Assembly: GCA_965215005.1 (NCBI GenBank)
Contig: CBDCCZ010000061.1
Location: 64,001-128,000, forward strand
Reading direction: 5' to 3'
Length of the DNA: 64,000 nt
DNA from: Kofleriaceae bacterium
GTDB taxonomy: Bacteria; Myxococcota_A; Polyangia; Haliangiales; Haliangiaceae
In this document: one piece after another, positions 43,001 through 46,000 of the stretch
Layout: each line of letters starts with the position of its first letter
Numbering within the stretch: the first letter of the stretch is position 1
The notes under the pieces: model-generated
Databases searched by the model: none
Seen by the model: only the letters and a program-made list of their open reading frames with translations
What the model was told of the DNA's origin: nothing
Made by a program: the position numbers and the translations under genes

Positions 43001-46000
43001 TGGCGAGCACCATCGCCAATGACGTTCACGTACGTCTACGATGGAGCCGCCGACACGATTCCCACTCTCAATCAAGAGACCGGCGGCAACGGCTGGCGCA
43101 TGAGCGTCGCGGTCGCCAACGGCGCCGGCGAGACCCTCTACACCGCCACGCGCCTCACGGAGCAGCGCTGGATTCTCGATGGCTATCAGGAACGCGATCC
43201 TCTCGGCCGCGTCGTCTTCGTAGGTCAAGCGCTTTACTGGGACGAGCAGCTCCCCGGCGGCCGTCCGCGCGGCATCGTCGGGCAGCAAGTTATTTACGAT
43301 GATCTCGATCGCCCCATCGAGAAACGGCTGCCAACAGGGCATCGCACCAACATTCGCTACGCGGCATTTGAGGTGCAGACCGAAGCCGATGACTTGGCGC
43401 CAGTCACGACCTATCTCGACGGCCAAGATCGCATCTGGCGCACCACTCGAACCGTGGGCAACGACGCTGCTGCCATCACTGAGTCCGTCACCGCCATCTA
43501 CGACGCCGCCAGTCGCATCACCGAGATGCGCTTGCAAGACGGCGCGATCAGCCATGCGTTCACCTACGACAGCCTGGGTCGCCTCACCTTCGCGACCGAT
43601 CCAGACATTGGCGAGCGGCACCTGGAATGGGATGATGCCGGCCGCCTGGTGCGTCACGAGAACGGCGCTGGCCAAGCCGTTTCCTTCGAATACGACCAGG
43701 CTGGGCGGCTTCTGCGCAACGCGGCCGATGACGGCACCGCCTTCGTCTATCACTACGACAAGTCCAAGAGCGACGGCTTTGGGCGCACCGCCGGCCGACT
43801 TGCATGGGTGGAAGAGCCGACCGGCACTGTCCATCTTGGCTACGACGTCGCCGGCCGGGCGATACGAGCGCGGCGAACCATCGACGGCAAGACAGCGGAG
43901 GAGCGCCGCGACTACGCTCCTTCTGGCCTTCTCCTCGCCGTCCATTACAACGACGAGCTCCACGTTCCTGTTGTCTACGACCGCGCCGGCCGTCCCACCG
44001 CGGTCGGGCAGGTTTGGGAAGTCACCGAGCAAGATGCCGCGGGCCGGATTCTCGGCGAGCGCTACGGCAACGGCATCACCCAGACATATCAGCGCGACGA
44101 GCTCGGCCTCACCAGCGAAACCGTCGTCGCTCGCGACGAAACCTCGCTATATGACATCGTCATCGGCCGCACCGCCTACGGCGCCGTTGACGCCGTTACC
44201 GATCGCGACGGCCGCGGTCTCGACCATACCGCCACGTTTGGCTACGACGGCGCGGCTCGCCTCACCAGCGCCACCGTAGGCCGCGGCGCCGCCCATTCGT
44301 TCCAATACGAGTACGATGCGCTGCAAAACATGGTGCGTCGTGAAGCCAGCGGCCCAGGCACCATCGGCGTCCTCGCGGGCAACTACGAATACGACGAGCA
44401 TGGCCCAAGGCAGCTCTCGCAGATCCTAGCCCCCGATGGCACCTCCATCGCTGCCTTCGACTACGACGCCGCCGGCCGACAAACCCGCTCCGCCGATCGC
44501 ACGCTCCACTACAACGGCCTCGACCAGCTCATCCGCGTCGAGCTGCCAGAGGGAGTCGTGGAACACGCCTACGGCTACGACGGCCTTCGCATCCGCACCC
44601 GCAGCGTCGACGGCACCGAGCAGATCTGGTTTAGCGAAGGCCTCTCCGACAAAGACGGCCTCCGCGAGCACACCATCTCCCTCAATAGCCGCATCCTCGC
44701 CCGCGTCACCCAAGCCCCCGAAGGCCGCACCAGCAACAGCGCCGCCGCCGGTGCTAGCACCACGCGCTGGCCGCTGATCACCCTGCTCCTTGCACTCGCG
44801 AGCCTCTTCACCATGGGTCTCGCCTGGACCGCACGTGTCCGCCCGCGCCGCCGTCTCGCCGCCGCCCGCGGCCTCGCCCTCACCCTCCTTGCCGGCATCG
44901 GCCTCTCCTGCGGTGGCGGCACCCAATGGCACACCGACCAAATCCTCTACGCTCACGCCGGCGTCTCCCCCGGCCCCGTCCTCTTCACCGACGAAGCCGG
45001 CATCGTCGTCGCCGAACGCCGCTACGAGCCCTTCGGCGGCACCATCGACTCCTACAGCGAAACCGACGGCCAAACCGGCCTCATCGACTTCGCCCGCATC
45101 TCCTACAACGCCCTCAACAAACAATCCGACCCCGACACCGAGTGGTCCTATCACGGCGCCCGCTGGCTCGCTCCCCAAACCGCCCAATGGCTCACTCCTG
45201 ATCCCCCGGTTAAAGGCCCCGACCCCGAGTTCATGGACAAGCCATGGACCCTGCATCCCTACCAATACGTTTCGCAGAACCCGATTCTCTATTGGGATCC
45301 CGATGGAAACGAACAAGAGCACGTCAAGGTGCTCAACGACGGAAGCGTCTACACCCACGCTCACGGCCCCAATGGGCAAGACGTTTACTACATCTACATC
45401 CCGGACTCCCCGACATACGGGGGGGGCAAATTCGTCAACTCATTCGCCTATGACTCCAGCCGCTATCTAGCCGAGCAGCGCACCGACGGCCGTCTCGCCG
45501 TCGGCATCGCCTACGTCGGCGCCGCCGACAACGTCGCATTCGAGCTCTGGTTCACCAGCGTCAGAATCGGCGCCGGCGCCGCCAGCGCCTCGCTCAGCAC
45601 CGCCTTTGGCGTCGTCAATTTCATCTCAGACGTCAACGCCACCTCCAACGCCATCCGCAGCTGCCAAGGCGACTCCCTCTGCGCCGCCGAAGTCTGGATC
45701 GAGACGACCTCACCCGGGCTACCGGGTATAGCTGGGCCGAAAGGGACCAAGCCAACTACTCTGGAACCTGGTCCTCATGCCGAACGTTCGGTGCCTGCAA
45801 GAGGCCCGCAGCGTGATTTCACCCGCGGTGAGAGAAACGCTGTGAATGAGATTGGGCAGAGGAATGGTTGCCACACCTGCGGAACAACAGATCCAGGAAC
45901 GAAATCAGGCGACTTCGTTCCTGATCATCAACCGCCAAATGCAGTGAACCCACCTGGCAAGCCACAACGACTCTATCCTCATTGCCTCGGATGCAGTCGT

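Follow-up and report, generated by a model that had tools for sequence, protein, structure and literature searches.

A conserved insert with a putative stop-transfer helix and lipoprotein-type signal in the cocoon of Tc-like RHS proteins

Introduction

What are a hydrophobic helix, an arginine cluster and a lipobox-like cysteine doing deep inside the cocoon of an exported RHS toxin? The question is raised by a gene in a 64,000-nucleotide stretch of DNA from a Kofleriaceae bacterium (GenBank assembly GCA_965215005.1, contig CBDCCZ010000061.1, positions 64,001 to 128,000 of the forward strand), the whole of which is referred to as the window. The YD-repeat shell encoded by this gene is interrupted by an insert, which an earlier note on the same DNA had described as a transmembrane (TM) segment, a basic cluster, a further hydrophobic stretch and a cysteine; the codon-exact translation bears that description out. 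Based on the composition of the insert and its conservation among relatives, we favour on balance a reading in which a stop-transfer helix is followed by an internal lipoprotein-type signal, the two forming a membrane module in a surface loop of the cocoon.

How large Sec-dependent Rhs toxins of myxobacteria are held and handed over is an open matter according to excerpts of a 2023 review (PMC10433427). In the same excerpts, Myxococcus xanthus Rhs4 and Rhs5 and Bacillus WapA appear as signal-peptide-bearing Rhs toxins that act against kin without depending on type VI secretion (T6SS).

Results

Anatomy of the Insert

The insert comprises 67 residues between the last shell strand and the Rhs core, and contains an apolar helix, an Arg-rich loop, a short hydrophobic stretch and a Cys. 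Its parts are as follows:

44717-44767, + strand: low-complexity linker PEGRTSNSAAAGASTTR, from the last shell strand to TM1 (codon-exact translation; predicted local distance difference test, pLDDT, below 50)
44768-44827, + strand: TM1, WPLITLLLALASLFTMGLAW, a 20-residue apolar helix and putative stop-transfer segment, N-out and C-in (hydropathy; helix at model residues 1005-1022)
44828-44869, + strand: Arg-rich loop TARVRPRRRLAAAR with 6 Arg and no acidic residue, the putative cytoplasmic loop and n-region of the second signal
44870-44911, + strand: h-region GLALTLLAGIGLS (44870-44908; 13 residues) and the invariant Cys (TGC, 44909-44911), the end of the lipoprotein-type signal

The Cys is followed directly by GGGTQWHTD, and DPDG lies 129 residues further on, close to the distance of about 130 residues between insert and DPDG given in the earlier note. 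In a hydropathy scan of the 1996-residue protein, 17-residue segments with a mean Kyte-Doolittle value of at least 1.6 were confined to the N-terminal signal peptide and the two insert segments. A structural model of the protein places the insert, at a pLDDT of 34-54, between two shell strands modelled with confidence (residues 976-985 and 1055-1065 of the model), a site at which other RHS proteins carry 3-20 residues. The two helices predicted within the insert coincide with the two hydrophobic stretches, and the shell strand resumes 6 residues past the insert Cys.

The layout of a type II signal comprises a positive n-region, an h-region of roughly 7-22 residues, a small residue at -1 and a Cys at +1. 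All of these are found in the window protein, where six Arg, the 13-residue run and S-C follow one another, and across the family, where the h-run has a median of 15 residues and the -1 residue is G, S or A in 143 of 146 cases. The location departs from that of a classical signal: in the main genes the putative signal lies about 1600 residues into the chain, and it is N-terminal only in 23 short relatives. The earlier note had spoken of an LSC lipobox. This holds for a loose PROSITE-style pattern, which the preceding residues I-G-L-S match, and fails for the classical L-[AS]-[GA]-C; both patterns were applied as regular expressions, and the hydropathy and pattern rules are ad hoc.

Conservation of the Pattern

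A search with residues 1480-1830 returned 241 relatives, the best 120 of which were examined (42-58% identity); named relatives among these 120 belong to Myxococcus, Corallococcus, Hyalangium, Archangium and Kofleriaceae, and M. xanthus homologues are WP_140787615.1 and WP_140797275.1. The range of the family includes Kofleriaceae-like lineages, and the RpoB of the present genome is nearest to that of MAGs labelled Kofleriaceae and Haliangium (84-85%). Among representatives at 50% identity, 211 proteins matched at E <= 1e-30, 335 at E <= 1e-10 and 4055 at E <= 1e-3, a step that sets the family sharply apart from general RHS proteins. The 351-residue region found no match at E <= 1e-30 in 200 other genomes of a phylum sample, with at most 10 candidates scored per genome; this conflicts with the named Myxococcota loci, and no inference is drawn from it.

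The insert was located by means of two flanking anchors, with at least 1300 residues defining a long relative and at least 45 residues defining an insert. So delimited, it occurs in 146 of the 154 long relatives. In 146/146 it closes with an uncharged hydrophobic run and a Cys, and TM1 and the basic loop are also present in all 146, so that the conservation of the Cys and of the hydrophobic pattern across homologues, a check proposed in the earlier note, is borne out. The residue at -1 is G in 73 proteins, S in 45, A in 25, N in 2 and T in 1; by comparison, G, S or A precedes 362 of the 1161 other Cys of the same proteins (31%). Cys makes up merely 0.28% of residues in the family, and the insert Cys is the only one that is invariant in an alignment of 44 sequences (A1) with about 2000 aligned positions.

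The dimensions of the insert are kept as well. The uncharged run of TM1 has a median of 21 residues and reaches at least 19 in 119/146; the loop between the runs has a median of 8.5 residues, with 4 R+K and 0 D+E; and the run before the Cys has a median of 15, being at most 16 in 109/146 and at least 19 in 11/146. The second run is shorter than TM1 in 141/146, as expected for a signal peptide. The insert sequence itself is barely conserved, and A, G and R abound in the linker before TM1, where no motif is conserved. Because the pattern is retained while the sequence hardly is, constraint acts on the pattern, in which a helix and a charged loop precede a short hydrophobic run with a small residue and Cys at its end, and its recurrence in 146/154 long relatives is far beyond chance. 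In sequence terms, the conserved pattern is the one that a stop-transfer segment with a lipoprotein-type signal behind it would show. From the Cys to a few residues into the next shell strand, relatives have a median of 16 residues. A subset shares a recurring C-G-[LT]-L-F-G-S right after the Cys, which is absent from the window protein.

Distribution of the Insert among Relatives

In the same genome, four other RHS genes have a short loop of about 8-10 residues at the insert position, and a second gene of the same kind, on contig C31, has the full insert. Eight long relatives are without it (P0187, P0192, P0200, P0201, P0206, P0213, P0241 and P0247) and carry 3-20 residues at the site, as do loci L029, L127 and L128; the insert-less relatives retain their N-terminal signal peptides. 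An unrooted tree was built from 64 proteins with the insert columns excluded, comprising 56 of 134 insert-bearing proteins (two chosen, the rest random) and all 8 insert-less ones. The insert-less proteins are placed among insert-bearing ones and need 3 changes, at least 2 of which are forced by well-supported branches. The simplest reading of this sequence-based tree is one old gain followed by a few losses. The two hydrophobic parts always co-occur, both being present in 146/146 and both absent in 8/8. Such joint behaviour would be expected if one span by itself were to leave plug and toxin on the wrong membrane side.

Orphan Module and Stand-Alone Forms

A second copy of the insert lies downstream of the main gene:

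47228-48997, + strand: orphan module with the shell end, the same insert (TM1 47666-47725, Cys 47807-47809), the Rhs core and a different toxin tip

Retention of the insert in the orphan, as the earlier note had it, is thus confirmed. The DNA of the main gene and the orphan is 94.8% identical over 1064 nt (44241-45303 versus 47139-48201). The homology begins at 47139, before the first start codon of the orphan open reading frame (ORF; 47228), and stops near DPDG, as expected of a recombination cassette.

More generally, the forms taken by the family were sorted in 136 representative relatives (P0124-P0259). Long proteins with shell, hydrophobic run and Cys account for 59. Of the short ones, 15 have a piece of shell and the whole insert, 10 start near TM1, and 23 are without TM1 and start with basic residues, a hydrophobic run and the Cys; in about 15 of these 23, the Cys is at residue 16-33, like in an ordinary lipoprotein precursor (for example P0227, P0230, P0235, P0239 and P0252). 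Another 14 are without run and Cys by the rule applied, 5 of them long and 9 short and starting after the Cys; four of the 5 long ones have a short loop only, and P0164 carries the insert. The remaining 15 escaped the core-motif pattern and on inspection proved to include both insert-bearing and insert-less proteins.

The genomic setting of the short forms was seen at three loci, L101, L106 and L111, the contig of P0230 not having been recovered in a metagenome scan (best match 57% identity). The short ORF of L101 (MRVRSICMVVALVGC followed by DGS) has its own ATG with GAGGA 9 nt upstream, 5 nt past the stop of the preceding small ORF, and similar short ORFs lie behind the end of the full gene at L106 and L111. 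If translated, such cassettes would be ordinary lipoproteins consisting of Rhs core and toxin. The stand-alone forms show, as far as sequence can, that a segment of the same kind as the second one is able to act as a type II signal at an N-terminus.

The Internal Site Compared with Lipoproteins of the Same Genome

Candidate lipoproteins of the genome were selected by a rule that asks for basic residues in the n-region, then for a hydrophobic run free of charge and for a Cys at residues 14-35. The rule selects 521 ORFs, most of which are taken to be true lipoproteins because 443 have G, A or S at -1. At +2, G is the commonest residue both among these 443 candidates (149) and at the internal sites (53/146). 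Judged by the residue counts, the internal site is strict at -1 and +1 and lax further upstream. The enzymes of lipoprotein maturation, Lgt and LspA, are each encoded once in the genome.

The sorting rules of M. xanthus, as stated in excerpts of PMC3222651, assign lipoproteins with Lys at +2 to the inner membrane and those with Ala at +7 to the matrix. Lys occurs at +2 in 1 of the 146 internal sites, and the window site has neither Lys at +2 nor Ala at +7. By these rules, so far as the excerpts give them, the site would not be of the inner-membrane-retained kind and would be of the outer-membrane kind; the hairpin of the shell, however, would remain in the inner membrane even once the chain was cut.

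A Fused B-C Component with a Putative TcA-Like Partner

The protein that carries the insert was identified from its domain architecture and predicted fold. The parts of the gene and of its surroundings are the following:

40043-46033, + strand: BC-fusion RHS cocoon gene, 1996 residues (Pfam, NCBIfam, AlphaFold2 model, fold match)
40043-40123, + strand: N-terminal Sec-type signal peptide MTTRARGSATVALVVGVLWMSMGSAWG (translation)
44912-45307, + strand: short Gly-rich tether followed by the Rhs-associated core (plug), which extends to the DPDG motif (45296-45307; translation, TIGR03696)
45308-46030, + strand: C-terminal toxin region (translation)
46050-47043, + strand: two immunity-type genes, Imm21 (46050-46547; Pfam E 5.5e-33) and DUF4265 (46504-47043; E 1.2e-18)
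35257-40020, + strand: partner gene for a 1587-residue predicted lipoprotein (MTSKWLVGAIVALMVGC followed by GGD; Cys codon 35305-35307) with a TcA-like C-terminal part (translation; the database protein P0262 starts at the same Met)

The longest ORF of the RHS gene is 39848-46033, its first 65 codons overlapping the end of the partner gene; the ATG at 40043 is the likely start, because the database protein (P0003) has 1996 residues, GAGGAG lies 7 nt upstream and a typical Sec signal peptide follows. Signal-peptide-like N-termini were also found by a crude rule in 110 of 142 long relatives, and 12 inspected proteins out of the 32 that failed it were signal-peptide-like by eye or had the N-terminus cut off. 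The order of domains is Sec signal peptide, SpvB, FG-GAP propeller, TcdB_midN, YD shell, insert, Rhs core and C-terminal toxin. Pfam matches are SpvB, FG-GAP_3, TcdB_toxin_midN and RHS repeats (PF05593, E 7e-24); of the NCBIfam models, TIGR01643 and TIGR03696 exceed their cut-offs, the latter placing the Rhs core at ORF residues 1726-1820.

An AlphaFold2 model of residues 640-1830, built on the 44-sequence alignment, has a mean pLDDT of 87.6 and a predicted template modelling score (pTM) of 0.82. Its top match in the PDB is the TcdB2-TccC3 cocoon 4o9x (E 2e-54, TMq 0.76), followed by T6SS Rhs effectors and teneurins; the fold match covers residues 640-1830, and the N-terminal 640 residues lie outside the model. 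The protein has the properties of an RHS/YD polymorphic toxin, namely YD repeats, an Rhs core, DPDG, a variable toxin, and orphan and immunity genes downstream, together with those of a Tc BC component, in that a TcB-type N-terminal part is joined to a TcC-type shell. Because of this Pfam and NCBIfam architecture and the 4o9x fold match, the window protein is assigned, at the level of models, to a Tc-toxin-like system as its B-C component, the two parts being fused and the C-terminal toxin variable. The view of the earlier note, an RHS cocoon, stands as far as it goes and had overlooked both the Tc-type fusion and the lipoprotein partner.

The partner protein has no sequence-level match in Pfam, NCBIfam or the PDB. 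Of the 14 loci examined, 10 have a homologue of it immediately upstream of the BC gene, and a lipoprotein-like N-terminus was seen at 6 related loci, in 7 of 11 database homologues, at the C31 locus and in the genome of the insert-less L029. A model of its C-terminal 800 residues (pLDDT 71.5, pTM 0.36) contains helices of 63, 80 and 92 residues, with a beta domain at the C-terminus. TcA subunits account for all 22 Foldseek matches in the PDB at E <= 1e-3, headed by 5lki_A (E 7e-10), with TM-scores of just 0.15-0.22. With moderate confidence, the partner is regarded from this model as a TcA-like translocator. On that view the locus would amount to a complete A plus BC system, all parts of which are Sec-exported and anchored by lipid or helix, and conservation of the pair would make the related loci Tc-like A plus BC systems in Myxococcota.

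A Pfam search of the C-terminal toxin region gave zero family matches. The two immunity candidates overlap by 44 nt directly 3' of this one toxin. In both BC genes of the genome (window 45320-45900 and the C31 paralogue) and in the C31 orphan (L003, L004), about 150 residues after the cleavage motif are conserved between the toxin regions, in a stretch that runs from ...HAHG.NG... to ...CQGDSLCAAEVWIETT.PGLPG, and only the last ~70 residues differ; this suggests, from the sequences compared, that the tips are exchangeable and follow a shared pre-toxin or entry domain. Hint or intein-type domains (PF07591, PF13403, PF01079) occur in the C-terminal regions of P0004, P0032, P0058, P0074, P0095 and P0108.

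Discussion

A Proposed Path of Export and Processing

According to the rules of Sec export, a 20-residue apolar helix stops transfer, and topology follows the distribution of positive charge, with the positive side inside. In the model proposed here, the N-terminal signal peptide would first bring about 1550 shell residues into the periplasm, where TM1 would halt transfer and leave the Arg-rich loop in the cytoplasm. The second hydrophobic stretch would act as an internal lipoprotein-type signal and restart export of the Rhs plug and toxin. As TM1 would stop transfer and the second stretch restart it, both halves would be periplasmic, with the plug end held at the membrane. A hairpin in the inner membrane with both flanks periplasmic is very probable, because a helix of this length and apolarity should stop Sec transfer and the positive-inside rule sets the direction; the median loop composition of 4 R+K and 0 D+E and the presence of an N-terminal signal peptide both argue for that orientation.

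The subsequent steps are proposed with less assurance. Lgt probably attaches diacylglycerol to the invariant Cys with which the second stretch ends on its outer side, and for LspA then cutting before this Cys the chances seem slightly better than even. The second segment is read as a type II signal because of the invariant Cys, the small residue at -1, the short run and the stand-alone forms. The products would be a shell fragment ending in the membrane hairpin and a lipid-anchored fragment of plug plus toxin, which would jointly form the cocoon. The plug end would sit on the membrane surface, because the next shell strand begins 6 residues past the Cys in the window protein and the corresponding stretch has a median of 16 in relatives; the propeller end would be free for a TcA-like partner. 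Since the upstream partner is also a predicted lipoprotein and its C-terminal model is TcA-like, all parts of the Tc-like machine may be assembled on a membrane surface. The earlier note had read the insert as a TM helix with a basic cluster leading straight into a lipoprotein signal, and support for that reading now comes from the invariant Cys, the G, S or A at -1 in 98% of proteins, the short h-region, the stand-alone forms and the presence of Lgt and LspA.

Several observations weigh against it. Pro at -2 is commoner at the internal sites (22/146) than in the genome candidates (12/443); Gln at -3, unusual in those candidates, occurs at 16/146 internal sites; and Asn stands at -1 in two proteins. 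The loose PROSITE-style pattern fits 78 of 120 internal sites and the classical lipobox 27 of 120. After the proposed cut, the hairpin would go on anchoring the shell in the inner membrane, and the benefit of cutting is unclear. Because eight relatives nested among carriers have lost the insert, it is dispensable for the cocoon. The orphan ORFs start at many points (15 with a shell piece, 10 near TM1 and 9 after the Cys) and are putative cassettes. The evidence is comparative throughout, and the sequences counted are related and not independent. The open-access and bioRxiv literature searched yielded no earlier case of a lipoprotein signal placed mid-chain.

Alternative Explanations

The most substantial alternative takes the insert to be an uncleaved helical hairpin that tethers an intact cocoon, the Cys having another role such as an intermolecular disulfide or acylation without cleavage. 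Joint gain and loss of TM1 and the second segment (146/146 and 8/8) is in keeping with it, as is the degeneracy of the lipobox at -2 and -3, and an uncut chain avoids the puzzle of a shell left behind in the inner membrane. However, the second run is mostly too short for a stable span, with its median of 15 residues and at least 19 in only 11/146, and a hairpin explains neither an invariant Cys with G, S or A exactly at the end of the run nor the short forms that keep only the second segment, at their N-termini. We consider this explanation unlikely, although it deserves weight. A related possibility makes the second segment an internal signal at which signal peptidase I or some other protease cuts, with the Cys incidental or required for folding. 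Signal peptidase I is known to cut an internal signal in a cytochrome bc1 polyprotein, and the small -1 residues would suit that enzyme too; yet it has no need of a Cys at +1, and the Cys is invariant, which leaves this explanation very improbable.

The earlier note had likened TM1 and its basic cluster to a C-terminal sorting tag, and in its full form this would make the pair a sortase, rhombosortase or myxosortase-type signal by which the shell is released or transferred enzymatically. The order of helix and basic residues and the N-out, C-in orientation do match such tags, excerpts of PMC11980579 describe MYXO-CTERM as a tripartite tag, and the genome encodes 15 MYXO-CTERM proteins (TIGR03901). 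No conserved motif precedes TM1 in the present family: a Cys upstream of it, which is invariant in MYXO-CTERM, occurs in 1/146 and GG within 12 residues in 32/146. TIGR03901 has no match to the insert at E <= 0.001, no NCBIfam sorting-tag model matches the protein, and the insert is internal and not C-terminal. The likeness does not survive these comparisons, and enzymatic sorting is scarcely to be expected here; MYXO-CTERM, GlyGly and other sorting-tag assignments of TM1 were rejected on grounds of missing motif, absent model match and internal position. Finally, the insert might be a functionless hydrophobic low-complexity stretch tolerated in a loop of a GC-rich gene. Poor sequence conservation, loss on at least two occasions and low AlphaFold2 confidence could be so explained, but order, lengths, charges and Cys are kept in 146/146 at 40-58% overall identity, and a 20-residue apolar helix with Arg behind it cannot be neutral in a protein exported by Sec, so that this explanation is hardly credible.

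A named family model was also tried on the insert. NF058595, the 'lipo-invert putative C-terminal anchoring domain', resembles it by its name, which suggests a helix and a lipoprotein-like element, and was rejected as a family name because the insert scores under the curated cut-off of 37 bits: matches over residues 1630-1693 reach 23.4, 24.7 and 29.6 bits, a weak 23-30 bit range, and 1 of 24 further relatives matches, at 16 bits. The model matches at E <= 0.01 in 10 of 14 control genomes and above cut-off in 0 of 151 phylum-sample genomes, and no literature on it was found among open-access papers and bioRxiv.

Relation to Known Systems

With a stop-transfer helix and an internal lipoprotein-type signal as the favoured composition of the insert, the family can be set beside known cocoons. 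T6SS Rhs effectors undergo double autoproteolysis and are cut at both ends, yet stay assembled. They likewise have a YD shell with an Rhs core plug and remain a single particle after cutting (7pq5, 7q97, 8uxt), but both of their cuts are autoproteolytic, the extra one lying at an N-terminal plug, whereas the extra cut proposed here would be made by LspA before a C-terminal plug and would leave a lipid. With the Photorhabdus Tc cocoon TcdB2-TccC3 (4o9x), the window protein shares SpvB, propeller, TcdB_midN, YD shell, Rhs core and C-terminal toxin; it differs in that B and C are fused, in its Sec signal peptide and in the TM-plus-lipobox insert. The C-terminal model of the partner matches TcA only, though weakly; unlike TcA of Tc toxins, the partner is a predicted lipoprotein of about 1600 residues without a PDB sequence match. 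Furthermore, the C-terminal toxins are polymorphic and accompanied by immunity genes and orphan cassettes, in contrast to classical Tc toxins and as in interbacterial systems. Tc toxins of insect pathogens are released by lysis, according to excerpts of PMC10847048, whereas the machine proposed here would be assembled on a membrane.

Among toxins acting between myxobacteria, the lipoprotein toxin SitA is a further parallel: excerpts of PMC5562445 describe its transfer by outer-membrane exchange. Shared with it are a polymorphic C-terminal toxin, an adjacent immunity gene and, set against the excerpted rules of PMC3222651, a type II signal without Lys at +2 or Ala at +7; the short stand-alone forms of the family likewise consist of an N-terminal lipoprotein signal and then the toxin. 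SitA differs in having an N-terminal signal and no RHS shell, while the main genes of the family carry the signal internally. Rhs4, Rhs5 and WapA are presented in the excerpts of PMC10433427 as likely cell-surface filaments, and an internal membrane segment or lipobox goes unmentioned there. Sorting to the outer membrane and transfer by outer-membrane exchange, which the earlier note had raised for the window protein, would by this analogy be conceivable and are offered as speculation. A TraA-like protein was not found by a crude test of the genome (93% complete), in which two PA14 matches coincided with none of the 15 MYXO-CTERM ORFs. In a further extension, which we consider doubtful, an LspA-split BC polyprotein with its lipid-anchored plug and the TcA-like lipoprotein would be an injector on the periplasmic face of the envelope, which would reach neighbours by outer-membrane fusion, through exchange or vesicles, and, once in the periplasm of the recipient, fire across the inner membrane of that cell. 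If true, a lipoprotein signal inside a chain would for the first time serve as the point at which a polyprotein is cleaved, and Rhs/Tc toxins would have a new route of delivery.

A published account of a TM-plus-lipobox insert in Rhs or Tc proteins was not found in the open-access and bioRxiv literature, and an RHS/Tc cocoon with a conserved membrane and lipoprotein-signal module, as read from sequence, is apparently undescribed; if cleavage by LspA were confirmed, the mode of processing would be new. It would extend lipoprotein biogenesis to internal signals, add a cut by a host enzyme to the known autoproteolytic cuts of Rhs cocoons, and define a membrane-anchored Tc-like class, with a TcA-like lipoprotein and an anchored BC, targeting bacteria rather than insects. 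In practical terms, the invariant Cys, the helix and the Arg cluster predict location and processing of the cocoon and provide a concrete, conserved and testable handle. Family proteins are currently annotated only as 'FG-GAP-like repeat-containing protein' or 'RHS repeat-associated protein'.

Neighbouring Features of the Window

Just downstream of the toxin locus lie an IS66-family transposase (50744-52687, - strand) and a KAP-family P-loop NTPase (56672-58882, - strand). One of the 15 MYXO-CTERM sorting tags of the genome stands at the end of an ORF within the window (61796-61882, - strand; 26.4 bits, exceeding the cut-off). Upstream of the partner gene, a 598-residue ORF (29611-31407, + strand) has weak matches to arrestin N and C domains (E ~1e-7), which are unusual in bacteria.

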